A DNA stretch of 64,000 bases from a virus: positions 1 through 64,000 of IMG/VR virus record IMGVR_UViG_3300045988_106851; one strand, given 5' to 3'. Below, in pieces: positions 2,007 to 27,022 of the stretch. The notes under the pieces are model-generated. The model made no database searches, was not told the origin of the DNA, and saw nothing but the letters and a program-made list of their open reading frames with translations. How positions within the stretch are numbered: the first letter of the stretch is position 1; the number at the start of each line of letters is the position of its first letter. The position numbers and the translations under genes are program-made.

Positions 2007-5000
2007 TTATGGGGTATTTGCGATAGGTGTAGGCTGGTCGATAACCTCAATATCAACAAACCATCTATATGCACCATTGTTATATTTGCGCTCAACCTTT
2101 AATATACGGAATTTTGTTCCTCGTTGTAAGATAACCTCCAATTCTTTTGTGCTTCCAAAATGGTGCGCTCCACTTTTTCCATCCCAGTTATATCCGTCTG
2201 AACGGAGACTGCCAAACCTTGAATAAGGTTCAGCATAGATGCCCTTTGTTCCTTTAGGGCAATAAATGTTATATACAAATGAAGAGATAACATCTTTTTC
2301 GCCGTCTCCAACAAATCCATAGCCCTTTGTGTGAGCTGTTGACATAAAAGGCTTATTTGTTCCCTCTTTGCCTATAACTTGTGAAAGGTCTGTTGTTATC
2401 AAACTCTTTTCTTTTGTAGCAAGTTGATTTTTTAAGTCGGAAATCTCTGTATTCAATTTACTTATAAGACTTTTGTCGGATGCGAATTTTAGTCTATGTT
2501 CCTTGTCGCTAATTTCATTTGCTATCATTTCGCACGTCCTCTCTATATCGTAATCATAATCGAGGTTCACGCCGAACTGAGCACTAAACTCTCCTAAGCT
2601 ACCACCTCTATTAAGCCATACATCACGTGTGAATGGTTTGGATTCGTCAATCATTTTTGAGAGGGTATTTATATCCTTCCAACTATCTCTGACTTCGTTA
2701 TGTACACCATATTTCTTACTATAATAAGTTGTGTAGCAAGGTTCGTTGATATATGAACTTCCACTTGTGTAGTTAAAAGCAACCTCTTTCTCATTCTGAG
2801 ACCATCGTTTCCAATCAGCCTCGGCAAAAGGTCTAAAGTAATCGTCGGCAACATCAGGGTTTCTTGCCCAAAGTGCAGCATCTTTCCTTGCTTTAGAGTA
2901 AGCATCAGCATCGAAAGGAATAGAGCCACTTTTTTTGTTAGTCGCTCTTTTTAGCTTTATATCAATGAGAGACTGCTTCTTTTGCATCGTCTCAGCAAGC
3001 AGTTTGTCGGCGAGGTCTTTATCCTGTGCGATAATCGCATTGTTGAGGTCATAGACGAGCTTGTGATATATCTTGCTCTGTGTCTTATAGCCCTTTACAT
3101 CGCCATAGGCTTTATTGATATTCACCCAATCAATCGCCGTATTTACCTCATCGAGCTTTTTGAGATATGCCGCTTGCGATACCTCCCAAGTGGCATACTT
3201 CTGCTGAACTCCGTGCATATTTCCACCAAGGAAATCAACCGCCTCAAATTGCAATTTGCTTGCTTGCTTTTCAAGCGTCAAGCTTTGCCATTGAGCCAAC
3301 TTCGCTTCTACGGCATCATATACTCCGTGCAACTCTTGTGAAGAGAACAGCTTATGCCATTTATTGACATCAGGGATGAGAGCGGAAAGCGAAGCCTCGT
3401 CCATCTGTATCGCCTTGATGCTCTTTGCAAGCGTTTTCGCTGCCTCTCTTGCCTTCGCATAGTCAGCCGCCTGTAATAATGCCTGGACGTAAGAAAAGTC
3501 CGTCTCGCCGTATTGCTGAGCGGTTTTCAGCACATTCATTGCTACCTTACGGTCAGTCCACAAGAGCTTCGTCTCATAGCCTTGCTTGAAGCGATTGAAT
3601 ACCTGCATCACCTCATCACTGCTCTTCTTGTCAGCTATCGCATAGCGGATTGCGAAGTATCGCTTGTGGAGTGCTTCGCTTTTAATATTAGTAATAGCCT
3701 GTCCTTCGAGCAAATCTTTCGCCATGCCATAATAGTAATTACGACGATAATTATTCCATCGAGACTGTATCTTGTCAATCTGCTCCTGCGTGCGTTGGAT
3801 GTGGCGAGCCTTTGCTTTCTCCAATATTTCATCCTTGCGAGAAATCGCGTTTAAGCCCATTTGCGCGCGATTTTCGGTGCTTAAAAGCCCTGTCCAGTAC
3901 TTTGTGTTATCTCGCAAATGCCACGCCAATTTTCCGCTCTTACCAGCGGTAACGATGGCATCGGTATTGTCTCTTATATATTGTTTAAACTCGTCGGGTA
4001 CGTCTGTAACGGCAAAGGGCGAGACATAATTACTCATGTCCTCACCTGCCATAAGTCGTTTGTAAAATTGTTTTTTTTCATCGCCTTGCAAAGTAATAGG
4101 GTCGCTCGTGCATCGGCATTGAGGGTGCCAGTTCAGCCAAACAAAATCCTTTGGGTATCTGCCTTGAAGTTCATCGCATATATCATGGTGCTTCTCTGGG
4201 TCATGCTCTGGAGAGACGTGAATCCACTGCCCTATGACAAACGGTTCTTTCCGCCACCTCTCGTTGTGCGCTTTAAGGTATGCGGCGTTTATCTCCGTCC
4301 TCGCCACTCGCAACGCATTCTTGCGTGCCGAACGATACACACCCGTGCCGACCGCCTCCAATGGCTCATCAACAAAACGAACCTTACCGTTAATCACCTT
4401 ACGCTTGTACCATTTGACAACATCCTTTTTCGTGCCGTTCTTTAGCACCTTGACAGTGTGATAACGCCGATACATCATGTCGGGATTATTGAGGTACTGC
4501 CTTAACTTGGAGCCTATCTGTTCTGCCGATTCACCAGCCTTAATTCCATCGGCAAGCACATTAGACATTGCCATTTCAAATTCCCCCTTGCTTTGTTGAC
4601 AATAGTTCCATACAGTCTGCGCGAGGTTCAGCCCTTCCTTGGAATGTAGTCTATTCGCGATAAAAGTCTTGGCCGCCGTTGCCCTTGCCACTTTAAGGGC
4701 GTCATTCGATAATATCGTAAAAGTACCAAGGTCTTCTTTGTCGTGGTTGTAAGCCAGGGTCACTCCGTCCGTGATTCCGTTCTCGTAGCACAGCAGACTG
4801 TTTTGAAAATAATCATTAAAAATATTGTTAAGCCTTGCCTTTAATTTGGGGAAATTGTCAAAATTAAATAAAGCATCGTCATCCAGCACACCCTCATCAT
4901 AACCAAGAGATAACAATCTCTTGATGTAGTCACTATATAGCCTGCCCAACCGCTTGTTATAAACGGCGAACAGATAATTCATTTGTTCTTTCTGCTGTTT

Positions 5001-5021
5001 TGATGTGAGCTTCTTTGACAT
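2007..5021 (-). CDS. minor head protein (SPP1 gp7 / Mu F family) with C-terminal ADP-ribosyltransferase domain
   Basis: Mu-F motif ARTEINAAY...ICDELQGRY...WHPQCRCT in the N-terminal third. The C-terminal part has an R-S-E ART triad: WLNRGG, FMSTAHTKG and STKELEVILQRG (ExE). Sits directly downstream of the portal gene. Confidence 0.85.
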   Translation of the reverse strand: MSKKLTSKQQKEQMNYLFAVYNKRLGRLYSDYIKRLLSLGYDEGVLDDDALFNFDNFPKLKARLNNIFNDYFQNSLLCYENGITDGVTLAYNHDKEDLGTFTILSNDALKVARATAAKTFIANRLHSKEGLNLAQTVWNYCQQSKGEFEMAMSNVLADGIKAGESAEQIGSKLRQYLNNPDMMYRRYHTVKVLKNGTKKDVVKWYKRKVINGKVRFVDEPLEAVGTGVYRSARKNALRVARTEINAAYLKAHNERWRKEPFVIGQWIHVSPEHDPEKHHDICDELQGRYPKDFVWLNWHPQCRCTSDPITLQGDEKKQFYKRLMAGEDMSNYVSPFAVTDVPDEFKQYIRDNTDAIVTAGKSGKLAWHLRDNTKYWTGLLSTENRAQMGLNAISRKDEILEKAKARHIQRTQEQIDKIQSRWNNYRRNYYYGMAKDLLEGQAITNIKSEALHKRYFAIRYAIADKKSSDEVMQVFNRFKQGYETKLLWTDRKVAMNVLKTAQQYGETDFSYVQALLQAADYAKAREAAKTLAKSIKAIQMDEASLSALIPDVNKWHKLFSSQELHGVYDAVEAKLAQWQSLTLEKQASKLQFEAVDFLGGNMHGVQQKYATWEVSQAAYLKKLDEVNTAIDWVNINKAYGDVKGYKTQSKIYHKLVYDLNNAIIAQDKDLADKLLAETMQKKQSLIDIKLKRATNKKSGSIPFDADAYSKARKDAALWARNPDVADDYFRPFAEADWKRWSQNEKEVAFNYTSGSSYINEPCYTTYYSKKYGVHNEVRDSWKDINTLSKMIDESKPFTRDVWLNRGGSLGEFSAQFGVNLDYDYDIERTCEMIANEISDKEHRLKFASDKSLISKLNTEISDLKNQLATKEKSLITTDLSQVIGKEGTNKPFMSTAHTKGYGFVGDGEKDVISSFVYNIYCPKGTKGIYAEPYSRFGSLRSDGYNWDGKSGAHHFGSTKELEVILQRGTKFRILKVERKYNNGAYRWFVDIEVIDQPTPIANTP

Positions 5022-5458
5022 TATTTACCTAATAATATTTTTATTTTTTTATCACCTTTAAGTATAGCCGCTGCTGCTCTATGATGACCATCAATTATAT
5101 AAACATTTCCATTACGCTGTACTCCATAAGGAACATCATTTGCATCAAAATTAATAGATGCAATCGTCTTTAGATTATTCGCTCCTATATATTCTTGTGT
5201 TGGGTGTATCTTATCAACCGACACATATTCGTACTTTCCTGTTGGTTTGCTAAATGACGATACAGTTTCTACGCTTGCCCTAACTTTTTCTGATTCCTCT
5301 TTTTGATATTTCTGCTTAAACACATCATTGGTTTTAATCGCCATAGTGCTTGTATTGCCGAATAAAGGAAATGATAATGAATCAATGGTATTGTTAATGG
5401 AAGCCTCTTTATACTTTACGCTATTAATTTTTCTTGTTCCTCCGCTTGCTTTTGCCAT
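5021..5458 (-). CDS. ParB/sulfiredoxin-like nuclease domain protein
   Basis: IHPTQEY...VYIIDGHHRAAAA matches the ParB-N DGHHR signature. Confidence 0.65.
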   Translation of the reverse strand: MAKASGGTRKINSVKYKEASINNTIDSLSFPLFGNTSTMAIKTNDVFKQKYQKEESEKVRASVETVSSFSKPTGKYEYVSVDKIHPTQEYIGANNLKTIASINFDANDVPYGVQRNGNVYIIDGHHRAAAAILKGDKKIKILLGK

Positions 5459-5460
5459 AT

Positions 5461-6984
5461 TTATTCCTCCTCTTCTTCATTTGAAACTGACTGACTTCCA
5501 CTTGCGGCACTACCAAGTCCCGAAAGGGCTGCTTGCTGCGCCAACGCTTCTTCCTGTTCACTCTTCATTTCTTCCTCAACCTTATCAGGGTCATCATTGA
5601 GAGGGTTAAGCTCAATGCTACGCCGCTGCGAGGTTGAAGGATTGCCACCGTTGCTTTGAGTAATAAGTTGCATCAGCTCAACATTATTTTTAGGGATGTA
5701 AGGCTCAAACACAGGCTCGAAGTCAATATCCTCAGCAACGCTTTCGTCTATACCTTTCACATAAGCACCTGTATTGCAGATGCCATTGGCCACGATATTG
5801 CTCCTGCGTGTGAACATCTCCCCATAAAGCTCCGTTTTATTGCCAACTTTCAAAAATGGGTCTGTGAACATTAAGCGAATGGCCGCGCCACTGGTGTTAT
5901 TGCCCAATGTCTTCATATTCTCAAATGAAATATCAGGCGTTTGTGTGAAGGAGAAGATAATATTAAACAGATAAGCAATCTCGCCCTTCACCGACTCTGG
6001 CGAGTGGTCCCAAGACAGGACGCTCATGTGCGTTTCCTTGCCGCCTTGGAATACCGCGCCCTGCTCGCCTTTCTCGGCGAAGCCTTCCAAACGCCCTTGT
6101 ATGAAGTATTTAGGCGTGCCGAAATAGTCGTTAGTATCACCCCAATTGGAGATGCACTCCTCCGCACGGTCTGCCGCCCACTGAACGTCTGCCCACTCTG
6201 ATTTGTACTGGTGATAATACACAACAGGTATCTTCGTAAAGCCGTGGGCCTTTACATCAACAAGCGTCCATCCTGAGCCATTGTTGATATACTTATACAC
6301 ATAACGGTCGGTGTATACATCAAAATGAAGTTCAGAATTGCCTTGCTCATCAAAAATATAGTATTCGCGCCCAAAGCCATCCATGCGATGCCAGTCGTTG
6401 AAGTGCGGATATAGCTTGTCGCCATTGGCAGGAGAAAGCAACTGCACACGTATCTCGCCGCCAAGTCGTCCGTTATCGTCCGTGGTCATGTACCACAACT
6501 CCGCTGCCTCACACTGTGAGGAAACGGTGCGAACGAGTTGCTTGTCAAAATACTTCATCTTGTTATCGTGATAGCAATGCATGATGGCATCATAAAGCAG
6601 TTGTTGCTTTCCGTCAAGCGACTTCACATCCACACCATGCGAATTAGCCTTATATGTCACGGCATTGGTAAGCAAGAAACCGACAAGCCTCTCTACGATA
6701 ATATACTGTATGGGCAGAGCTATCCTTACCCTGTCAACTAACACCGTCTTGTAGATTACCTGTCCCGTGATGGGGTCTTTTTGGTCGGTGGGGACTTTTA
6801 TTCGCTTTTTTTTACGCTTATCGATGTCAAACACGTCATGCTTGTATGGATCCCATTGGCGCATGAGCGTTTCAAAGTTGTCATGCAGTGGCAATTTGCG
6901 AGCTGTAAGCAATGTATGCACGGTGTTGGCATCATTGCCCGAGAGTATTTCAGTTATATTCCTCATTTTTTGTGGCTTTGCCAC
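5461..6984 (-). CDS. portal protein
   Basis: 507 aa with an acidic C-terminal tail (SNEEEEE). Located between the large terminase and the gp7-like minor head protein. Confidence 0.75.
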   Translation of the reverse strand: MAKPQKMRNITEILSGNDANTVHTLLTARKLPLHDNFETLMRQWDPYKHDVFDIDKRKKKRIKVPTDQKDPITGQVIYKTVLVDRVRIALPIQYIIVERLVGFLLTNAVTYKANSHGVDVKSLDGKQQLLYDAIMHCYHDNKMKYFDKQLVRTVSSQCEAAELWYMTTDDNGRLGGEIRVQLLSPANGDKLYPHFNDWHRMDGFGREYYIFDEQGNSELHFDVYTDRYVYKYINNGSGWTLVDVKAHGFTKIPVVYYHQYKSEWADVQWAADRAEECISNWGDTNDYFGTPKYFIQGRLEGFAEKGEQGAVFQGGKETHMSVLSWDHSPESVKGEIAYLFNIIFSFTQTPDISFENMKTLGNNTSGAAIRLMFTDPFLKVGNKTELYGEMFTRRSNIVANGICNTGAYVKGIDESVAEDIDFEPVFEPYIPKNNVELMQLITQSNGGNPSTSQRRSIELNPLNDDPDKVEEEMKSEQEEALAQQAALSGLGSAASGSQSVSNEEEEE

Positions 6985-11058: not shown

Positions 11059-12405
11059 TTACTCATTTTCGTTTTCCTTTATTTTTTCGGCCTTTTTGCC
11101 TGTGTAGGTTTCCCAACGGTTGATGATAACATCGCAATAATGTGGGTCAAGCTCCATTGAGAAACCCTTGCGGTTGAGTTGTTCGCACGCCATGATTGTT
11201 GTACCGCTACCACCGAAGCTGTCGTATACATTCCAGCCTTCCTGTGATGAGTTCTGAATAAGATATGCGAAGAGTGGAATAGGTTTCATGGTCGGATGTT
11301 CGACACTCTTGGTCGGTCGGTCAAACTCCATAACGGTAGTTTGTTTTCTGTCACTGAACCAATTATGGCTTGCTCCCTTTTTCCAACCATACAAGCAAGG
11401 TTCATGTCGCCATTGGTAGTCTTGTCTTCCGAGCACCATAGAGTTCTTAGCCCATATAAGGTTCTCACGTAACTCCAAATCAACAGTATTAATAAGGGCT
11501 TTTCTGAACCAATAGGAGTAGCCATCACTGTGGAATATATAGAAGGAGGCCCCTTTCCTCATGTTGGCGTTTGCAGCATTAAAGGCGTTTGTCAAGAACT
11601 GCTCGAACTTGTCGTTATCCATTTTGTCATTCAAGACAACAAGCCCGTCTTTACGATGGCCTTCAGTTGCACTGTTGTCGTATCCATAGGCTACATTATA
11701 AGGAGGGTCGGTTAGGTAGAGTTGTATCTGCTGACCATCAAGAAGCAATGCCACTTGCGCGGCATCCGTTGAGTCGCCGCACATAAGGCGATGTTGCCCT
11801 AACTGCCAAATGTCTCCAAGTTTGCACTTAGTCTCAATTTCATGCTCATTCTCATCATAGTTGTCATCTTCTGTTTCTTTGCGCTCTGACATCTGTTCGA
11901 CAGGTTCTGTGTCGGTTAAAAAGGAGCAATCCACTCCCCAATCTTGCAACTCATCGACTGTCCAGTCGCCGTTAGCAAGCTCATCCCAATCCCAGTTACC
12001 TGCTTGTACGTTGTCCTTGATAGCATACTCCTTGATTTTCTGAATTGGGGTATCGGTCTTCAAGACGAAACAAGGCAGCTTATCGAAGTTCGTATTTCCA
12101 CCGATGCGTAACTCGTTAGCCACTCTGAGGCGCATATTACCGCAGATGGTGACGTATGTACCATCCTCCAAGCCATAAACCATCAAAGGCTTGTACTCTA
12201 AGAACTCTGGGCTATCGGCGAGTGACTTGACGAGATTGTCGTGCTCGCTCTCCTTTAAGTAGCGAGGGTTCTTTGGAACGCCATCAATCTGCCCCTCATT
12301 ATAGAGGAGCTTTGTAATGTCAATCATTTCACGTAAACCCAGCTTTACAAGAAGCTCATCCTTTGCGATGTATGGGTTCTGAGAGATTTTCTTTTCTCTT
12401 GACAT
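11059..12405 (-). CDS. ParB-N domain-fused DNA N6-adenine/N4-cytosine methyltransferase
   Basis: N-terminal ParB-like ICGNMRLRVANEL. Catalytic LYLTDPPYNVAYG (DPPY) is followed by SAM-binding DSFGGSGTT, which is the beta-class motif order. Confidence 0.9.
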   Translation of the reverse strand: MSREKKISQNPYIAKDELLVKLGLREMIDITKLLYNEGQIDGVPKNPRYLKESEHDNLVKSLADSPEFLEYKPLMVYGLEDGTYVTICGNMRLRVANELRIGGNTNFDKLPCFVLKTDTPIQKIKEYAIKDNVQAGNWDWDELANGDWTVDELQDWGVDCSFLTDTEPVEQMSERKETEDDNYDENEHEIETKCKLGDIWQLGQHRLMCGDSTDAAQVALLLDGQQIQLYLTDPPYNVAYGYDNSATEGHRKDGLVVLNDKMDNDKFEQFLTNAFNAANANMRKGASFYIFHSDGYSYWFRKALINTVDLELRENLIWAKNSMVLGRQDYQWRHEPCLYGWKKGASHNWFSDRKQTTVMEFDRPTKSVEHPTMKPIPLFAYLIQNSSQEGWNVYDSFGGSGTTIMACEQLNRKGFSMELDPHYCDVIINRWETYTGKKAEKIKENENE

Positions 12406-19177: not shown

Positions 19178-19312
19178 ATGACTGACATTAAGATTTCGGT
19201 GCATCCGTTTGGCCATAAGCTCGAATGGCGAGGATGGGGGGGTAACTTCTCGCCTGCTCTACGAGCCACCGACTACAAATGCCCTCACTGTATAATGATT
19301 GAATATGACTAA
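19178..19312 (+). CDS. C5-methyltransferase TRD-like mini-protein (module a)
   Basis: 44 aa: ...WGGNFSPALRATDYKCPHCIMIEYD. Has a TRD-like xPxLRAxDYK core and an IEYD-stop tag. The next ATG is embedded at 19305. Confidence 0.55.
   Translation: MTDIKISVHPFGHKLEWRGWGGNFSPALRATDYKCPHCIMIEYD
19236..19242 (+). repeat. coding G7 homopolymer (in frame)
   Basis: TGG GGG GGT encodes WGG in module a. Confidence 0.9.
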
Positions 19313-19439
19313 GCAACACCCATTCGATGATTTTCATCAGCGCATTCATTGGGACGGCAACTCCATCGGAACCGTTACCCAGCAATGGGGCAATCCTGCG
19401 CCGAGGCACGGATGGCGAATAATGACAGAATATGATTAA
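19305..19439 (+). CDS. TRD-like mini-protein (module b)
   Basis: 44 aa: ...NSIGTVTQQWGNPAPRHGWRIMTEYD, ending in EYD-stop. The next ATG is at 19432. Confidence 0.5.
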   Translation: MTKQHPFDDFHQRIHWDGNSIGTVTQQWGNPAPRHGWRIMTEYD

Positions 19440-19758
19440 CCCTCACACGCCCCGCTACAAGCGCGGCACCATCACCAAGGACGGCAAGCTATACGGACGC
19501 TATCCCGACGGTTCGCTCTACCGCATCTACTCCACCTCTGACCGACCCTTCCTTCAGATTGTTGACCGCAAGGGCGAGACGTTCCTTCGCATACGCCAAG
19601 CCACCGAGCAGGGCTATACCGACTGCCCTTGCCCTGGTGCTGCCGACCTCAGCTATTCCTCCTCGGCTCTAAGGCGCAGCAGGACGGTTGGGGGGGGTAA
19701 GCTGGTGAACGCTCTGACCGCAGCAAGCGGAGGGGCGTGCGTGTTTGTTGAATTATGA
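19432..19758 (+). CDS. TRD-like protein (module c)
   Basis: 108 aa: ...TVGGGKLVNALTAASGGACVFVEL, carrying the VEL-stop tag shared with modules f and o. Confidence 0.5.
   Translation: MINPHTPRYKRGTITKDGKLYGRYPDGSLYRIYSTSDRPFLQIVDRKGETFLRIRQATEQGYTDCPCPGAADLSYSSSALRRSRTVGGGKLVNALTAASGGACVFVEL
19690..19697 (+). repeat. coding G8 homopolymer (in frame)
   Basis: GTT GGG GGG GGT encodes VGGG in module c. Confidence 0.9.
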
Positions 19759-19765
19759 CTTGAAT

Positions 19766-19942
19766 ATGCTTAGAGCAAAGGCAATATCAATAATGGTGAA
19801 AAAGGTGGAGCAGACCATGGTGTTTCAGAACATGCAAGCCAAAGGTCTGATAACGCCTCGCTCGCTTGATGGCGAATGTTTTACTCTTACGTCTGCAATG
19901 GGATTAGGGGGGGCAAACGCCTGTAATAGTAAAGGTATATGA
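19766..19942 (+). CDS. TRD-like mini-protein (module d), C-terminus probably out of the conserved frame
   Basis: ...GECFTLTSAMGLGG then ANACNSKGI-stop as assembled. One fewer G gives GGQTPVIVKVYD-stop at 19944-19946, which recreates the canonical TATGACTAA junction. Confidence 0.5.
   Translation: MLRAKAISIMVKKVEQTMVFQNMQAKGLITPRSLDGECFTLTSAMGLGGANACNSKGI
19907..19913 (+). repeat. coding G7 homopolymer (breaks the conserved frame)
   Basis: See module d. G6 or G9 would restore the Y-D-stop tag. Confidence 0.8.
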
Positions 19943-20070
19943 CTAAATACGACCTCTACCAATATCCTCGTGGCTACAACGACGGAGGTAGATTAGGCAC
20001 TGACGTTTGCCCGACCTTGACAATCAATTCGTGGCAGCAAAATGTATTTCTGATTGAAGAATATGAATAA
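19939..20070 (+). CDS. TRD-like mini-protein (module e)
   Basis: 43 aa: MTKYDLYQYPRGYNDGGRLGTDVCPTLTINSWQQNVFLIEEYE, with a classic PTLT TRD core. Confidence 0.6.
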   Translation: MTKYDLYQYPRGYNDGGRLGTDVCPTLTINSWQQNVFLIEEYE

Positions 20071-20082
20071 AGCAAAGACAAT

Positions 20083-21418
20083 ATGATCACAAAACTCAAT
20101 TTCACCGACCGCACCATCAAGAGCTATGCTATCCGTAAGCTCACGCCAAAGGAGTGTTTCCGCTTGATGGGCGTTCGCGACAACGTAATCGGCACGATGC
20201 AGAGCAGCAATGCCCAAGCAGCCGAACGTTTGCCCGACTGGAAGGGCAAGGGCAAACCCGAAGACATGGCTATATCTGCCTCACAGCAGTACAAGCAAGC
20301 CGGAAACTCAATCGTGGTGGACGTGTTGGCCCACATCTACGAGCAACTTTTCTATCCCGCACCGCCCAAGCCCCGCAAGCAGGAACAGCTCACGCTCTTC
20401 GCCGACCTTGATGACTCGCTGCCCGCCATGCCACCAACAGCCGGAGAACGTGGTAAGGAAAATCTTTTCCTCACCACGTTCTCCGGCTACGACTCGCAGC
20501 TCATGGCAGCCGACGTGCTATGCGAGTGGCATCCCGACTTCCGATGGACATGCGTAGGATGGAGCGACATCGACAAATACGCCTGTCAGATGCACAACCT
20601 CGTCTTCCCTCAGTTTGCCGACTGCGCCCTTGGCGACATCACCAAGATTGACTGGCATGAGGTGAAACGCTCGCTCCATGGGCGCGAGGTTGACATCTTC
20701 ACCTATTCCTCGCCTTGCCAGGACATCAGCCAAGCCGGAAAGCAAATGGGACTGAAAGAGGGTAGCGACACACGCTCCGCCTTGCTTTGGCGTGTGGCGG
20801 ATGCCGTGGAGGTGCTTCGCCCGAAGTATCTCTTGCAGGAGAACGTGGCGGCACTGGTAAGCCAGAAGTTCATGCCCGACTTTCAGAAGTGGCTCGACAA
20901 ACTCTCGTCGCTCGGCTACGTCTCTCGCTGGGCTCGTCTCTCGCTGGGCTCGTCTCAACGCCAAGAACTACGGTGTGCCGCAGAACCGCGACCGTGTGTT
21001 CTGCATCTCCATGCGCCAGGACGTAGCCTTCGACTATCAGTTTCCCGAACCCTTCGAGCTGCGCACCCGACTGGAGGACGTGTTGGAAAATGAGGTAGCC
21101 GACCGTTATTTCCTAAAAGACGATGCCGTGAGCAAATCCCTCAAGGCTAACGACTCCGACAACGCCCTCTTCGTGCAGTTTGATTTGCCACCGACACACG
21201 AGGCAGCAATGTTCTTGAAAACGTGGCTCACGTTGTGGATGCAAGCAGCCGATGGTTGGAAAATGACATCTACAAGTCTTCAGCTCGCCCTTTATTCGGC
21301 AAAGCAGAAAATGGAGCTGTCTTATTCCGTGTTCACGGATAAGGGAGTGGCTGCGTTAGGCGATGAGTTTCAATTGTTGTTCAAGGAGAATATGGAGAGG
21401 AAGAAGGATGCGAACTGA
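20083..21418 (+). pseudogene. dcm: circularly permuted cytosine-C5 DNA methyltransferase core, frameshifted by a 16-bp tandem duplication
   Basis: Motif order: IX (RKLTPKECFRLMG), X (YKQAGNSIVV), linker, I (LFLTTFSGYDS), IV (YSSPCQDIS), VI (LLQENV). The frame then breaks at 20920-20951, and motif VIII (GVPQNRDRVFCIS) continues in another frame to 21418. Confidence 0.8.
20920..20951 (+). repeat. perfect 16-bp tandem duplication (GTCTCTCGCTGGGCTC x2)
   Basis: Read directly at 20920-20935 and 20936-20951. Deleting one copy gives the continuous sequence ...LGYVSRWARLNAKNYGVPQNRDRVFCIS. Confidence 0.95.
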
Positions 21419-21599
21419 CAACCCGCCCGACCGTGTAATCCGTATCATAGCTGATATGATTAGGGGTGGTAGGTTGCTCACCTGCCCTGCCTCAATGTTC
21501 AGCGCAGAGCGTTTCAACGGAGCCTTTCACGGCATAGCAATAACCATCATGTCGCGCACCGATTGCAGCGACGTATTCTTTGTAGCAGTAGAATTATGA
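21408..21599 (+). CDS. TRD-like mini-protein (module f)
   Basis: 63 aa: ...HGIAITIMSRTDCSDVFFVAVEL. The ATG overlaps the core stop. Carries the VEL-stop tag, with the next ATG embedded at 21596. Confidence 0.5.
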   Translation: MRTDNPPDRVIRIIADMIRGGRLLTCPASMFSAERFNGAFHGIAITIMSRTDCSDVFFVAVEL

Positions 21600-21742
21600 C
21601 ACTCCCTTTCAACACCGAATCCGACGGTACATCACATACTATTAAATCCCAATATTTCAAAATGGGAGCAGCGAATGTGCTCGACATTTCGTTTGACGGT
21701 GCCAACTTTAAAGCCACTGGCGCAATCGTGATATATGAATAA
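21596..21742 (+). CDS. TRD-like mini-protein (module g)
   Basis: 48 aa: ...GTSHTIKSQYFKMGAANVL...ATGAIVIYE. Confidence 0.55.
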   Translation: MTLPFNTESDGTSHTIKSQYFKMGAANVLDISFDGANFKATGAIVIYE

Positions 21743-21887
21743 CAACCCTCGACCCATCATCCTCGGCTCCTACAGCCCCTCGCAGAACGGCATCATCGTG
21801 TCACCACACGGCATAGCCTTGTGCATAGCCGGGGGTGGTAAGGGCCACGATGTGGACAAACCGAAAATACTGATAGAATATGATTGA
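21735..21887 (+). CDS. TRD-like mini-protein (module h)
   Basis: 50 aa: ...SPHGIALCIAGGGKGHDVDKPKILIEYD. Confidence 0.55.
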   Translation: MNNNPRPIILGSYSPSQNGIIVSPHGIALCIAGGGKGHDVDKPKILIEYD

Positions 21888-22062
21888 CCGTTCCGTCCTC
21901 GTCCACTACCGCACCGAAGAGGCGAAAGCCTACCGCCGCGAGCATGGCGACCGTGGAGGGTGCAAATACCAAGACAAACTGCATCTCCCCAGTCCGTGGC
22001 CGTGGAGTAATTCGATAACAACAGTAACAAAAGACAACCTCCTATGCGTAATATTCAGATAG
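21880..22062 (+). CDS. TRD-like mini-protein (module i)
   Basis: 60 aa: ...RTEEAKAYRREHGD...NSITTVTKDNLLCVIFR. The next ATG (22044) lies inside its 3' end. Confidence 0.5.
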   Translation: MIDRSVLVHYRTEEAKAYRREHGDRGGCKYQDKLHLPSPWPWSNSITTVTKDNLLCVIFR

Positions 22063-22218
22063 CTGCCTTCCGAGGTCGCGACCCCGACAACCCGTCCGAC
22101 CGCAAGCATCCCTCCTGCGGTCGTTTCCGTCAGCGCATGGAGATAAACGGGGGGGGGTACAACCAACACGCTTACGTCAGTAGGCAAGGATAATATGGCA
22201 TATATAGAGTATGAATAA
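22044..22218 (+). pseudogene. TRD-like module j, frameshifted at a G9 tract
   Basis: As assembled: ...QRMEINGGGYNQHAYVSRQG-stop at 22193. With G8: ...EINGGGTTNTLTSVGKDNMAYIEYE-stop at 22216-22218, with the canonical junction. Confidence 0.7.
22149..22157 (+). repeat. coding G9 homopolymer (breaks the conserved frame)
   Basis: Counted directly: gg + ggggggg. Confidence 0.9.
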
Positions 22219-22360
22219 TCAAATCCCATTCGTGCAACGCCTCTCGCGTTTCTGCCCACGTCGGGGCTACTCCACCGCCCTGTCCGCACGCTACGACGGA
22301 TGGGCAGGACTCTACGACGAGCACGGACAGCACACCATTGTATTGATAGAGTATGAATAA
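22211..22360 (+). CDS. TRD-like mini-protein (module k)
   Basis: 49 aa: ...RRGYSTALSARYDGWAGLYDEHGQHTIVLIEYE. Confidence 0.55.
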   Translation: MNNQIPFVQRLSRFCPRRGYSTALSARYDGWAGLYDEHGQHTIVLIEYE

Positions 22361-22493
22361 GTATATACTAAATTGCTCGTCAGGTATCTGTTGCGTTTTG
22401 GCCTCTCATTACGCAAGAGAAGGATGGGCGAACATAGCAAATAATACAACATCACAATGTAAAGCACCCGCAATATTGATAGAGTATGACTGA
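22353..22493 (+). CDS. TRD-like mini-protein (module l)
   Basis: 46 aa: ...SGICCVLASHYAREGWANIANNTTSQCKAPAILIEYD. Confidence 0.55.
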   Translation: MNKYILNCSSGICCVLASHYAREGWANIANNTTSQCKAPAILIEYD

Positions 22494-22665
22494 CAAGTAT
22501 TACATTGGCTGGGTACGCAGCGGCAAGGACGGCAAGGGCCTCGTAAAGAGCCGACCGTGCAAGCGGATAGCCAATGCCGTGACGACAATGGTCGGAAGAG
22601 GTATTGCCGACCCTCGCGACGGACTCGGCAACACCACACCGCATATAGTATATGAATATGAGTAA
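22486..22665 (+). CDS. TRD-like mini-protein (module m)
   Basis: 59 aa: ...RIANAVTTMVGRGIADPRDGLGNTTPHIVYEYE. Confidence 0.5.
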   Translation: MTDKYYIGWVRSGKDGKGLVKSRPCKRIANAVTTMVGRGIADPRDGLGNTTPHIVYEYE

Positions 22666-22685
22666 CCAATAAAACAAAAAAAACA

Positions 22686-23138
22686 ATGGAAAAAGAAACA
22701 AATAACCGTATGGAGGCACTTGCCTACATCATAGCCGACCTAAAGGCAGAGAACATAGAGCTGGTGCAGCGTGTGCATCAGCTTGTGGAGGATTACAACG
22801 ACGTAGCACGTCAGTTGCGTGGAATGGAGAAGCGTAAGGACGAAGACCAGTCAAGGCAGACGCTCGGCGAAATGATGCAGATGCGCGACCATTGCGACAA
22901 ACTGGAGGTTGAAAACAACAATTTGAAGACGTGCTTGATAGCAGTCAGCTCGTTTCTGCGAGACAAAAATCTGTATATGGCTAATGGCACATTATGTTCT
23001 TATGGGTCTGGCAATCCAGAAGTATGTCCTGAGTACTGCAAAAAATGTAACTCCTACCTAAGTACTTTAAAGGATGTTGGTGTGGTTTGCAGCAGAAGAC
23101 TTGCAGAAGCTTCCGTAATTTTTGCGAAGAGTAAATGA
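22686..23138 (+). CDS. coiled-coil protein with a Cys-rich C-terminus, hypothetical
   Basis: 150 aa with heptad-like N-terminal two-thirds. Inserted between TRD modules m and o. The stop overlaps the module-o ATG. Confidence 0.5.
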   Translation: MEKETNNRMEALAYIIADLKAENIELVQRVHQLVEDYNDVARQLRGMEKRKDEDQSRQTLGEMMQMRDHCDKLEVENNNLKTCLIAVSSFLRDKNLYMANGTLCSYGSGNPEVCPEYCKKCNSYLSTLKDVGVVCSRRLAEASVIFAKSK

Positions 23139-23297
23139 CACCAACAAAAACCCTCGTGGTCGGCATGATGCAGACGCCACCCTATGACCGCATGTTTGAG
23201 CAGAGCCGCCGCGTGTACTCCGCTCAGGGAATATCGCCCACGCTGCATACACAAGGGGGGGGGTGATAGAGAGATTAAGGTATTGGTGGAGCTGTAA
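23135..23297 (+). pseudogene. TRD-like module o, frameshifted at a G9 tract
   Basis: As assembled: ...RVYSAQGISPTLHTQGGG-stop (23264-23266). With G8: ...GGGDREIKVLVEL-stop at 23295-23297. Confidence 0.65.
23255..23263 (+). repeat. coding G9 homopolymer (breaks the conserved frame)
   Basis: Counted directly: gggggg + ggg. Confidence 0.9.
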
Positions 23298-23419
23298 GAA
23301 TGTCCGCTCCATATCGCCGACAACACCTATCTTTGTACATATCACTGATATGATACGAATGAGACTAACATCGTTTTCATTTGTTTCGTTTGGTGACAAA
23401 CAAAAACAACATTTCATCT

Positions 23420-23773
23420 ATGATACAACATCAGCATTGGGAAGACTCCACTCACATACTCATTACCGACGAGCAGCATCATGGCAGCATACAGGTGTTC
23501 ATCCCCAAGCGCACCGAAGACAAGCCCTTGGATGGCGAGGCTGACGCTCTCGTCTATTCGCTGTGGGTGGGCGAACGGCACCGTGGCCGTGGGGTGGCAA
23601 AACTCCTGATGGAGACAGCCGAAAGGGAACTGAAGCGCTGCGGCATAGCGACCGTCGCTATATCGTGGGATGGACGCGACTCTCCCCAATGGGTGTTGCA
23701 ATGGTATGAAAGGTTGGGCTACGAAGGAAAAGCGTTCGACTACCGCTGCTGCACGCTTCTTAAACGGTTGTAG
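23420..23773 (+). CDS. GNAT family N-acetyltransferase
   Basis: VGERHRGRGVAKLLMETAERELKRCG is the acetyl-CoA-binding (Q/R)xxGxG/A motif A. The first ATG is at 23420; the track ORF opens with TTG at 23381. Confidence 0.7.
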   Translation: MIQHQHWEDSTHILITDEQHHGSIQVFIPKRTEDKPLDGEADALVYSLWVGERHRGRGVAKLLMETAERELKRCGIATVAISWDGRDSPQWVLQWYERLGYEGKAFDYRCCTLLKRL

Positions 23774-24068: not shown

Positions 24069-24596
24069 ATGAAAACAAACGCGCTCTCCGTCGCCAACTA
24101 TTTCATAGAGTTGTCTATAAAGGACAAGAAACCCATACACTTGCTTGGGCTTGTCAAACGTGTTTATATTGCACATGGATTCGCCTTGGCATTACTACAT
24201 CGTGGTTTAATAAACGAAAGGTTTGACAAGGTGGAGGCATGGAAATACGGACCGGTCATACCGTCCGTTTACCATTCATTCAAACAGTATCGAGCAAGGG
24301 AGATAACGGGGAAAACTGTTGTTATGGAATGGGACGAGAGAGAAAAATGTCCAATATTTGAAACTCCAAGCCTAACTGCCAAAGATGAGAAAAGAATAGT
24401 AGAGATGGTATGGAGAAGGTATATTTCATATTCAGATAGCGAGTTGGTAAGTTTAACCCACATGAAAGGTACTCCGTGGGACATGTGTTTCATTGAGGGG
24501 GAAAATGTAACGATTCCAGATATTCTTACAGAAGACTATTACAGAAGGCTAATTGAAAGAGTCGCGTCAAGAAAGGGTATCTCATGGGAAAATTAG
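24069..24596 (+). CDS. Panacea/DUF4065 (SocA/GepA-like) antitoxin-domain protein
   Basis: ALSVANYFIELS...HLLGLVKRVYIAHGFALA...VEAWKYGPVIPSVYHSFKQY matches the DUF4065 N-terminal pattern. Confidence 0.65.
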   Translation: MKTNALSVANYFIELSIKDKKPIHLLGLVKRVYIAHGFALALLHRGLINERFDKVEAWKYGPVIPSVYHSFKQYRAREITGKTVVMEWDEREKCPIFETPSLTAKDEKRIVEMVWRRYISYSDSELVSLTHMKGTPWDMCFIEGENVTIPDILTEDYYRRLIERVASRKGISWEN

Positions 24597-25820: not shown

Positions 25821-25865
25821 AAGGGCATGATTGTCTTTCGATAGTCTTGCCCTTACTTTTTATTA
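25821..25865 (+). terminator. intrinsic terminator closing the early plus-strand operon
   Basis: Stem AAGGGCA (25821-25827) / TGCCCTT (25848-25854) followed by ACTTTTTATT. Overlaps the integrase stop codon. Confidence 0.5.
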
Positions 25866-27022
25866 TAAAGCACGTAATCTATCACTTTACGATTGGCCTC
25901 ATCTATTTTATTCTGGTCTTTCTTGATATATACATTTGTTATTTTATGTCCGCCTTTATGGCCTAAGCAGTCTGCTATAATATCAATACTGATACCAATT
26001 TGATAAGCTATGGTCGCAAATGAATGCCTTGCCCAATATGTCGTAATCTTAGGCAAGCCGAGCTCAGAGCTTATATTGCGCAACATCTTGTTTATATTAA
26101 TTTCAAAGTTCTTGCAATCCTTTTCGCCATCAAAGACATTTAAGAGATGCTTTTCGCCTTTGTAACGGTTGATAATTTCAAGTGCCTCTGGTTCTACCTT
26201 AATATCATAAAGCGTCCCAGTCTTTGACCGTCGATAAATTACCCTCCCATTCTCGATTGAAGATAAACCGAATAAATCAATTATGTTAATTCCCATCAAG
26301 AAAAATACAAGAAAGAATATATCACGATATTTTGTGCGTAACCGAGAAAGTTTCGCATTATATAAAGTTCTCAACTCTTCGACGGTTAACGCTCTTTTTT
26401 TCGTCTCTTCCATCCGTATGGTGTACATATCAAAGACATACTCTTTTAGTAATCCTTTTTTGCGAGCAAAGTTAAGGACGGCACGAATATTCATTAGCCG
26501 TATGGCGATGGTATTTTTGGAATTACCATTTTTTTTCAAAAAAGAGACAAAACTATTAATCCAGTCTATATCAATGTCCGAAAGCAACAGGCTATCGTAA
26601 TCACAGAATGCAGAAATTTTTGATTCTGTGTATAAATAGATATTCTTTGTCCCTTGCCTGTCTTTTGTAGAGAGCAACTCTTGGAATTGGGTCTTAAGCA
26701 AATAATCATTATCTGGCTCGCCTTCGCCAGACAAAAATTGAGCAAGCCGCCTATTTGAAAAGCTACGAAGTTTTCCTTCCTCTCTAAGTTCTTCAATTTT
26801 ATCGTTGACGTAAGTCACCTTTTTTGATAGTCTTAGATTGTCTATGCGCTGGCTTTGCCTTTTCTTTATCTTACTATTAGCCACATCCCATTCTTTCTCT
26901 TCAAGTTCAAAACCTGTAGAGAGGTAAAAAGCACCGCCATTCCGAGCGACCTTGATTTTTAATGGATATTTACCATTTTTCAAGCGATACCTCTTATCCA
27001 ATTTTACTGTAACTTTTATCAT
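25853..27022 (-). CDS. int: tyrosine-type site-specific integrase
   Basis: N-terminal arm-binding-like MIKVTVKLDKRYRLKNGKYPLKIKV. C-terminal catalytic region ARHSFATIAY...CLGHKGGHKITNVYI contains R, H-x-x-R-like and Y elements. Confidence 0.85.
   Translation of the reverse strand: MIKVTVKLDKRYRLKNGKYPLKIKVARNGGAFYLSTGFELEEKEWDVANSKIKKRQSQRIDNLRLSKKVTYVNDKIEELREEGKLRSFSNRRLAQFLSGEGEPDNDYLLKTQFQELLSTKDRQGTKNIYLYTESKISAFCDYDSLLLSDIDIDWINSFVSFLKKNGNSKNTIAIRLMNIRAVLNFARKKGLLKEYVFDMYTIRMEETKKRALTVEELRTLYNAKLSRLRTKYRDIFFLVFFLMGINIIDLFGLSSIENGRVIYRRSKTGTLYDIKVEPEALEIINRYKGEKHLLNVFDGEKDCKNFEININKMLRNISSELGLPKITTYWARHSFATIAYQIGISIDIIADCLGHKGGHKITNVYIKKDQNKIDEANRKVIDYVLYNKK

Follow-up and report, generated by a model that had tools for sequence, protein, structure and literature searches.

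The 64,000-nucleotide (nt) stretch of viral DNA analysed here (positions 1 to 64,000 of the IMG/VR record IMGVR_UViG_3300045988_106851; hereafter the window) carries a row of 14 mini open reading frames (ORFs) of 43-108 codons, i.e. the modules a-m and o, which lie on both sides of a single cytosine-C5 methyltransferase (C5-MTase) core and are accompanied by an additional reading frame, ORF n (table 1). An earlier note on this DNA, made from its letters alone, had described about 14 mini-cistrons around one such core, each resembling a target-recognition domain (TRD) of C5-MTases, and both the ORF listing and the sequence agree with the layout it proposed. Its count of ten endings of the type Y-(D/E)-stop also holds, with a, b, e, g, h, k, l and m ending in this way as read and d and j after repair, as does its count of three V-E-L-stop endings, which are found in c and f as read and in o after repair; module i, with the C-terminus VIFR, belongs to neither class. 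In each of the three modules d, j and o, the ‘corrected frame’ assumed in that note is obtained by deleting one G from a poly-G tract, and the frame logic behind this repair is upheld across relatives.

A permuted C5-methyltransferase core without a TRD

The core contains the motifs I, IV, VI, VIII, IX and X of the C5-MTase family PF00145 and the S-adenosylmethionine-dependent MTase fold, yet no TRD. Its motifs appear in the circularly permuted order IX-X-I-IV-VI-VIII, being represented in the translation by IRKLTPKE, AGNSIV, FSGYDS, PCQDIS, ENV and QNRDRVF (the patterns used were FxGxG-like for motif I, PCQ for IV, ENV for VI, QxRxR for VIII, RxLTxxE for IX and GNS for X). This is the motif order of the M.BssHII type, with the permutation point in the variable region, but the TRD which that type keeps in the same chain is missing here, save in rare natural fusions (P0091 and L060). 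At least 120 homologues of the core are 88-94% identical at 99-100% query coverage, with lengths of 435-491 amino acids (aa), mostly 438-439 aa, and in most of the homologues listed the end residue is the same. Lengths and coverage together indicate that the core ORF normally terminates without a TRD.

The copy in the window is not intact. A 16-nt tandem duplication (2 x GTCTCTCGCTGGGCTC), flanked by GTCTC repeats, shifts the frame before motif VIII, and with one copy of the repeat removed a 439-aa protein is restored that matches PF00145 with an E value of 2.4e-51, the match falling in two stretches. The duplication is present in three further metagenome assemblies and in none of 80 related loci—these 80 viral contigs, with core identities of 67-92%, form the comparison set used throughout—and the exact frameshifted product of 336 aa is recorded on 5 contigs. 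Where two of the other assemblies cover the array, they match the window with 100% identity, and this holds for the duplication and for the poly-G lengths there; the third has the frameshifted core product too, and its differences from the window are all upstream of the array. An assembly artefact was rejected because of this agreement between independent assemblies. With a frameshift in its core and with modules d, j and o out of frame, the window copy is probably inactive at present, and the duplication shared by three further assemblies points to a phage lineage with a disabled core in circulation.

With respect to the origin of the core, two neighbouring conventional C5-MTase genes in Bacillus phage Deep Blue (L093, 2436-4718) are collinear with it, the end of the first gene (IX-X) being followed by the start of the second (I-VIII). 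This arrangement suggests that the permuted core could have arisen by fusion across such a tandem gene pair. The split layout itself was not found in any deposited phage genome, either with megablast of the region, which gave no match at all, or with tblastn of the core, whose sole collinear matches of at least 80% were two adjacent conventional MTase genes in Bacillus phages.

Table 1. Features of the array, its core and other genes of the window (HMM, hidden Markov model; dN/dS, ratio of non-synonymous to synonymous substitution rates; G7 and the like, poly-G tracts of that length).
Feature	Position	Strand	Description
Array and core region	19178-23297	+	14 mini-ORFs (a-m, o), ORF n and C5-MTase core (ORF listing, sequence)
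Module a	19178-19312	+	44 aa, ends IEYD; G7 19236-19242 in frame; dN/dS 0.17; family HMM matches VIII-IX variable region of conventional MTases
Module b	19305-19439	+	44 aa, ends TEYD; ATG 5 nt before stop of a; dN/dS 0.08; HMM matches in variable region
Module c	19432-19758	+	108 aa, ends FVEL; G8 19690-19697 in frame; dN/dS 0.09
Module d	19766-19946	+	as read stops at 19942, G7 19907-19913 being one G too long; with G6 ends VYD-stop at 19946
Module e	19939-20070	+	43 aa, ends EEYE; final module before core
C5-MTase core	20083-21418	+	permuted, without TRD; IX-X-I-IV-VI-VIII and family-specific C-terminal helical region; here in two frames, 20083-21093 and 20975-21418
Inverted repeat	20439-20488		24 nt, 96% complementary, 2-nt loop; in core ORF, in the linker immediately upstream of motif I; one arm reverse-complements the motif I coding sequence; shorter 12-nt version in 5 related loci
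Tandem duplication	20920-20951	+	16 nt; shifts core frame before motif VIII
Module f	21408-21599	+	63 aa, ends AVEL; ATG overlaps core ORF end by 11 nt; dN/dS 0.13
Module g	21596-21742	+	48 aa, ends VIYE; ATGA overlap with f
Module h	21735-21887	+	50 aa, ends IEYD; in 73/80 loci; dN/dS 0.09
Module i	21880-22062	+	60 aa, ends VIFR-stop; SNSITTVTKDN type
Module j	22044-22218	+	as read stops at 22193, G9 22149-22157 being one G too long; with G8 reads ...GGGTTNTLTSVGKDNMAYIEYE-stop at 22218
Module k	22211-22360	+	49 aa, ends IEYE; sole family for which no fused homologue was found
Module l	22353-22493	+	46 aa, ends IEYD
Module m	22486-22665	+	59 aa, ends YEYE
ORF n	22686-23138	+	150 aa, coiled coil and Cys-rich C-terminus; not a TRD; stop overlaps ATG of o (ATGA)
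Module o	23135-23297	+	as read stops at 23266 just after G9 23255-23263; with G8 reads ...SPTLHTQGGGDREIKVLVEL-stop at 23297
Head-morphogenesis protein	2007-5021	-	1004 aa, fused to Bxa-type ADP-ribosyltransferase domain
Second DNA methyltransferase	11059-12405	-	ParB-like N-terminal domain (phrog_498)
GNAT acetyltransferase	23381-23773		downstream of array
SocA/Panacea-domain protein	24069-24596		downstream of array
Tyrosine integrase	25853-27022	-	downstream of array

The modules as homologues of target-recognition domains

The resemblance of the mini-ORFs to TRD modules of C5-MTases was borne out by BLASTP and by family HMMs, both compared with full-length enzymes. In BLASTP, 10 of the 14 modules have matches (E 1e-4 to 1e-15), which in conventional enzymes fall between motifs VIII and IX and in permuted enzymes next to motif IX. 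With profiles, as the earlier note had recommended, 12 of the 14 family HMMs match enzymes, and 634 of the 697 domain matches are located in the variable region. Many of the conventional enzymes matched have variable regions of 300-550 residues made up of tandem TRDs (e.g. P0365 and P0195), with P0195 accommodating about 10 of these in a single chain of 777 aa; P0153 (750 aa), another conventional multi-TRD relative, has an intein-like insertion of about 310 residues in its motif IV, between FPC and CTDISSAG. At the level of individual modules, f is 34% identical (pairwise E 7e-6) to a TRD fused N-terminally in the permuted single-chain relative P0172, and j shares 55-63% identity with TRD segments of conventional MTases (HMM E 2.5e-21) as well as 55-60% with the TRD that starts the small subunit of a two-gene Streptococcus phage enzyme. 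A single-sequence search of the PDB with module o gave a lone match to a designed repeat, which was discarded as spurious.

At the level of sequence, these comparisons show that the modules are homologues of TRDs. With 12 HMMs and the pairwise match of f, the locus has the several variable-region-homologous TRDs of the multispecific phage type of enzyme, but not their tandem arrangement in one chain between motifs VIII and IX; rather, each module has an ATG and a stop of its own, which are conserved in up to 73 of the 80 loci.

Where a module might sit on the core is indicated by natural fusions. In P0091 (491 aa) and L060 the core continues at its C-terminus into an m-type module, and the m family also occurs N-terminal to motif IX in P0165, a position in which fused TRDs are likewise found in P0132, P0271, P0272, P0172 and P0256. 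Fusions at both ends of the core thus match the array, where some modules precede motif IX and others follow motif VIII. P0091, which is about 91% identical to the family consensus, was also modelled with AlphaFold2. With a shallow alignment the predicted local distance difference test (pLDDT) score was 34, and once sub-sequence rows of conventional enzymes had been added to the alignment the mean pLDDT was 75.8, with a confident catalytic fold and no TRD-like fold in the core part. In this model, a beta-hairpin (residues 2-15) precedes motif IX at the N-terminus, and the family-specific C-terminal region (residues 366-440, pLDDT 60-70) consists of three helices. Foldseek matched the model to M.HhaI (E 1.6e-14) and, at about E 1e-14, to M.MpeI and M.HaeIII.

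Conservation, junctions and poly-G tracts

Arrays are kept in at least 77 of the 80 related contigs, and each module family is present in 19-73 of them. Comparison of related genomes, which the earlier note had also advised, revealed that the lengths, starts and stops of the ORFs are conserved across this set, with TAA, TGA and TAG all in use. Thus, module b has 44 aa in 20 of 20 orthologues and module h 49-50 aa in 62 of 65, and the orthologues of module d have 60 aa and the C-terminus [VI]YD. All modules show dN/dS values of 0.08-0.28 in their own frame (Nei-Gojobori). Conservation and purifying selection are thus shown for the separate frames, starts and stops throughout a large clade of phages. 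Reassignment of a stop codon was rejected, as TAA, TGA and TAG are found at the same positions of the junctions and frames change. Module order is mostly kept (a-e, core, f-o), and there are about 60 combinations of cassette presence and absence; 24 recurrent clusters of mini-ORFs with at least three members each, most of them TRD-like, were found in the 80 loci and the window. The modules are thus shown by genome comparison to be gained and lost as cassettes. An unrelated phage lineage (L085) has a core of 357 aa, also without a TRD and only 46% identical, directly followed by overlapping i-like and b-like mini-ORFs that end in ...WIEYI and ...LLIEY. The mini-proteins are annotated as hypothetical proteins only; the 90% identity cluster of h alone has 261 members on hundreds of contigs, every named one of which is a ‘hypothetical protein’.

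The junctions between the cistrons are equally stereotyped. GARTATGAMTRA occurs 6 times in the window, 5 of these in the array, as against 0.11 occurrences expected for the whole window. Of 742 module ends, 393 have the following ATG 5 nt upstream of their stop (TATGAMTRA), and in 53 the two codons overlap as ATGA. The start codon is selected, because the Tyr codon that carries the ATG is TAT in 460 and TAC in 60 cases, compared with a ratio of 791:815 elsewhere in the modules. Together with the conserved endings and the low dN/dS values, this codon bias supports translation of each module as a polypeptide of its own. A feature overlooked by the earlier note is that around the next ATG the junction ATAGAATATGAMTRA leaves no reading frame open. 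Among 471 overlapping junctions, 371 have a stop no more than four codons ahead of the downstream ATG and in frame with it, which in 222 cases is the TAG of ATAGAATATG, and 461 have one in the third frame, in 260 of these as the TGA of ATGA. The TAG depends on an Ile codon (position -4), for which ATA is used in 211 of 283 cases, compared with 37% elsewhere. We infer that a ribosome arriving in any frame would terminate at the junction and restart at the ATG. The same segment encodes a C-terminus, [IVL]-[LMIV]-I-E-Y-[D/E], that is common to 14 otherwise unrelated families, and a comparable strand (e.g. GVMEV) closes the TRDs of single-chain relatives. This shared strand may represent the end of the TRD fold and possibly also a docking element.

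An alternative is that a once continuous multi-TRD MTase has been broken by stops and frameshifts and that the mini-ORFs are pseudogene fragments of this decaying gene, as the earlier note had considered in its third hypothesis. The 16-nt duplication in the core of the window, the out-of-frame state of d, j and o and the existence of single-chain relatives with up to about 10 tandem TRDs speak for such decay. For the family as a whole, however, simple decay is rejected, because lengths, starts, endings and stops are the same in dozens of genomes even where the identity of the stop codon varies, every module has a low dN/dS in its own frame, and codon choice reveals selection for the embedded ATG and the three-frame stops. 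With the end residue of the core constant in most of its homologues as well, decay is hardly credible as an explanation of the array.

The same junctions bear on the idea that recoding, i.e. frameshifting or readthrough at each of them, joins TRDs and core covalently into a polyprotein equivalent to the SPR and phi3T enzymes. The core is indeed in frame with module e, with one TAA and 12 nt between the two, and fused forms are found in nature; yet this frame relation is not kept in relatives such as L002, successive modules follow each other in the +1 frame at some junctions, in the -1 frame at others or after gaps of 8-20 nt, and most junctions have stops in every frame within a span of about 20 nt. 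Moreover, there is no slippery motif, searches for Rfam RNA elements, known recoding RNAs and tRNAs found none, and 13 successive events would yield almost no full-length product. Recoding is therefore very improbable. Scans for sigma-70 promoters and terminators gave counts at or below shuffle expectation.

A second feature that had been overlooked concerns the poly-G tracts. The 64 kb contain five poly-G runs of at least 7 bases, and all five are located inside modules (a, c, d, j and o). Tract lengths among orthologues are 6, 7, 8, 9 and 11, and the reading frame tracks the length: module c is in frame with G8 and G11 and out of frame with G6, G7 and G9 (13 of 55 loci are out of frame), and module a is out of frame with G8 (15 loci), whereas interrupted tracts of five G or fewer are almost always in frame. 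A strain-variable coding homopolymer that sets the frame is characteristic of simple-sequence phase-variable MTases, and, read from the sequences, this pattern is the signature of a contingency locus. The second hypothesis of the earlier note, a switchable repertoire, gains support from this polymorphism. In one related contig (L002, 4152-4274), a chimeric module combines the N-terminal part of a with the C-terminal part of c, joined exactly at the poly-G tracts (MTRICISVHPVSHRLEWRGWGKLVNALTAVSGGVYVFVEL), and the tracts therefore also act as points of recombination or deletion.

A further possibility is that the modules are a silent store, untranslated in place, and that recombination at the conserved junction repeats transfers cassettes to an expression site where they are fused to the core. 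Conserved direct repeats of 15-21 nt at the cassette borders, the many combinations of presence and absence, occasional displaced cassettes, the a/c chimera, the core-m fusions and a tyrosine integrase gene 2.5 kb downstream would all be in line with this. Silent cassettes, however, would not need start codons, which are specifically maintained here; with all cassettes in direct orientation and no inverted repeats flanking them, recombination would delete rather than switch, and a fused expression form is seen in only 1 of the 80 loci. We regard a silent store as decidedly unlikely. A shufflon operating by inversion was rejected on the same grounds of orientation and repeats.

Around the array, genes for portal, large terminase, tape measure, major head protein and integrase mark the genome as that of a tailed temperate phage. 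The G+C content is 0.46-0.54 in the array region and about 0.39-0.43 in its flanks. In a scan of genome contigs the family was found only in metagenome-assembled genomes with mixed bin labels, and because of these labels the assignment of the host, which is probably Prevotella, stays tentative. Homologues of ORF n with 149-233 aa occur in 48 of the 80 loci, often directly before an o-type module.

Proposed exchangeable recognition subunits and known systems

Overall, we consider it fairly probable that the locus specifies a multispecific C5-MTase with exchangeable TRD subunits which act in trans, are produced by termination-restart translation and are in part switched by poly-G tracts; trans-acting subunits, the first hypothesis of the earlier note, seem to be the most economical reading. 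A single message would cover the array, and a ribosome reaching a junction would end one module there and begin the next at the embedded ATG, 5 nt (or 1 nt) upstream of the stop. Each mini-protein would bind the core without a covalent link, at a site bounded by the end of motif VIII on one side and by the N-terminal hairpin preceding motif IX on the other, with the shared C-terminal strand [IVL]-[LMIV]-I-E-Y-[D/E] (or V-E-L) probably involved, and would thereby complete the small domain, such that each module confers one methylation specificity. The resulting broad pattern of 5-methylcytosine (5mC) could shield the phage DNA from many host restriction enzymes. Slippage at poly-G in some modules would turn single specificities off and on while the enzyme survives, which is impossible for a single-chain multispecific enzyme. 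With one TRD per cistron, a slip would cost one specificity and not the enzyme, a potentially useful property against both methylation-sensitive and methylation-dependent restriction.

Several observations weigh against this interpretation. The core of the window genome itself is frameshifted, and the three further assemblies of the window strain match the window at every poly-G tract covered, with no within-strain switching seen. In structural terms, the o-family profile retrieves from the PDB only residues 239-257 of M.HhaI, i.e. the T-L recognition loop, and the TRD of M.MpeI, both with weak E values of 0.4-0.8; a Pfam scan of the modules gave nothing significant, the family HMM of module k found no fused counterpart among the proteins sampled, and the fused TRD of P0091 (residues 439-491) is not placed confidently in the model (pLDDT <50). 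One related contig of 99 kb (L050, IMGVR_UViG_3300045988_175279) has a core that is 78% identical to that of the window (5001-6314) and no TRD module within 5 kb on either side. Finally, permuted M.MpeI or M.SssI was inactive in E. coli when split into a part with IX-X-I-VIII and an isolated TRD (PMC5944983); docking in trans is therefore non-trivial and would need evolved interfaces.

Some of these points could also be taken to mean that the mini-proteins act without the core, either as small DNA-binding decoys or regulators or as partners of a host MTase or another phage MTase. The core without nearby modules in L050, the persistence of the broken-core strain in at least three further metagenome assemblies and the failure of an isolated TRD to complement an engineered core (PMC5944983) would be compatible with such independent action. 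Yet arrays lie directly against a core of this kind in all but 3 of the 80 loci and also in the independent lineage L085, the modules are homologous to TRDs that work only within the small domain of C5-MTases, and natural fusions to the same core exist. Action independent of the core is thus unlikely.

In more general terms, it is tentatively conceivable, at a level of confidence somewhat short of even, that C5-MTases can work like Type I systems, with a TRD-less body and a set of recognition subunits (45-60 residues each, up to about 14 in number) which are interchangeable, act in trans, are encoded on one message with three-frame-stop/restart junctions and can each be switched by poly-G; such systems would be common in phages of the human gut (probably of Prevotella), occur in at least one further lineage and hide behind the annotation ‘hypothetical proteins’. 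For many TRDs serving one catalytic domain no structural explanation is known so far, and free TRD subunits would suggest reversible docking. If subunits of this kind exist, they would explain very common ‘hypothetical’ mini-proteins of gut phages and provide an unusual case of single specificities being switched individually within a phage anti-restriction system. A small plug-in TRD for a common core would also be an attractive route to programmable 5mC specificity, and the three-frame stop-and-restart junction a compact part for the expression of many small proteins where Shine-Dalgarno sequences are not relied on.

Full-text literature searches found no description of individually cistronic TRDs, but elements of the proposed system have counterparts in known enzymes. 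Multispecific C5-MTases, i.e. M.SPRI, M.Phi3TI, M.Rho11sI and M.H2I, were described in temperate Bacillus phages by the Trautner laboratory. They resemble the system of the window in being phage C5-MTases in which several independent, exchangeable TRDs of about 40-60 residues serve one core, and single-chain relatives of the window core have 5-10 tandem TRDs homologous to the modules. In the Bacillus phage enzymes, however, the TRDs are part of one polypeptide between motifs VIII and IX, whereas the TRDs of the window are separate cistrons, each with a start and a stop, on both sides of a core that is permuted and TRD-less.

Among permuted enzymes, M.BssHII is reportedly multispecific, as stated in the title of a 1996 paper by Schumann et al. 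Natural permutations of C5-MTases fall in the variable region, and M.BssHII, M.Alw26I, M2.Eco31I, M.Esp3I and M2.BsaI all have IX-X before I-VIII with the permutation point in this region (PMC5944983), a likeness to the window core that concerns motif order and not sequence relatedness to M.BssHII. Unlike the window core, M.BssHII and other permuted C5-MTases keep their TRD or TRDs in the same chain.

Naturally split C5-MTases demonstrate that a very small polypeptide can be an essential subunit. M.EcoHK31I consists of an alpha subunit and a beta subunit of 61 aa. M.AquI, with its alpha and beta subunits, is split as well (PMC5944983). In Streptococcus phage Javan179 (L081, 567-1845), a two-gene C5-MTase comprises a 264-aa subunit with motifs I-VIII and a TRD-like C-terminus ending in VIELIE-stop and a 128-aa subunit with a j-like TRD and motifs IX-X. 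By its sequence this enzyme looks like a simpler split between TRDs; the annotations of the gene pair recur in several Javan prophages. M.AquI, M.EcoHK31I and the Javan179 enzyme have in common that the active enzyme is put together from independently translated parts, the split being located within the variable region or next to it, whereas for the window such assembly is only proposed. They also differ in consisting of two pieces, each with conserved motifs, whereas up to 14 TRD-only pieces would compete for one core in the system considered here.

In its logic, the proposed system matches HsdS of Type I restriction–modification systems and phasevarions, where a specificity subunit acting in trans sets the target of a shared catalytic subunit and simple-sequence tracts serve as switches. 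There is no relationship in sequence or fold, HsdS serves N6-adenine enzymes, and what is switched in HsdS systems and phasevarions are whole enzymes, or hsdS by inversion, and not single TRD cistrons of a C5 enzyme. If the modules do act as exchangeable subunits in trans, the array would represent a C5-enzyme counterpart to specificity subunits of the HsdS type.

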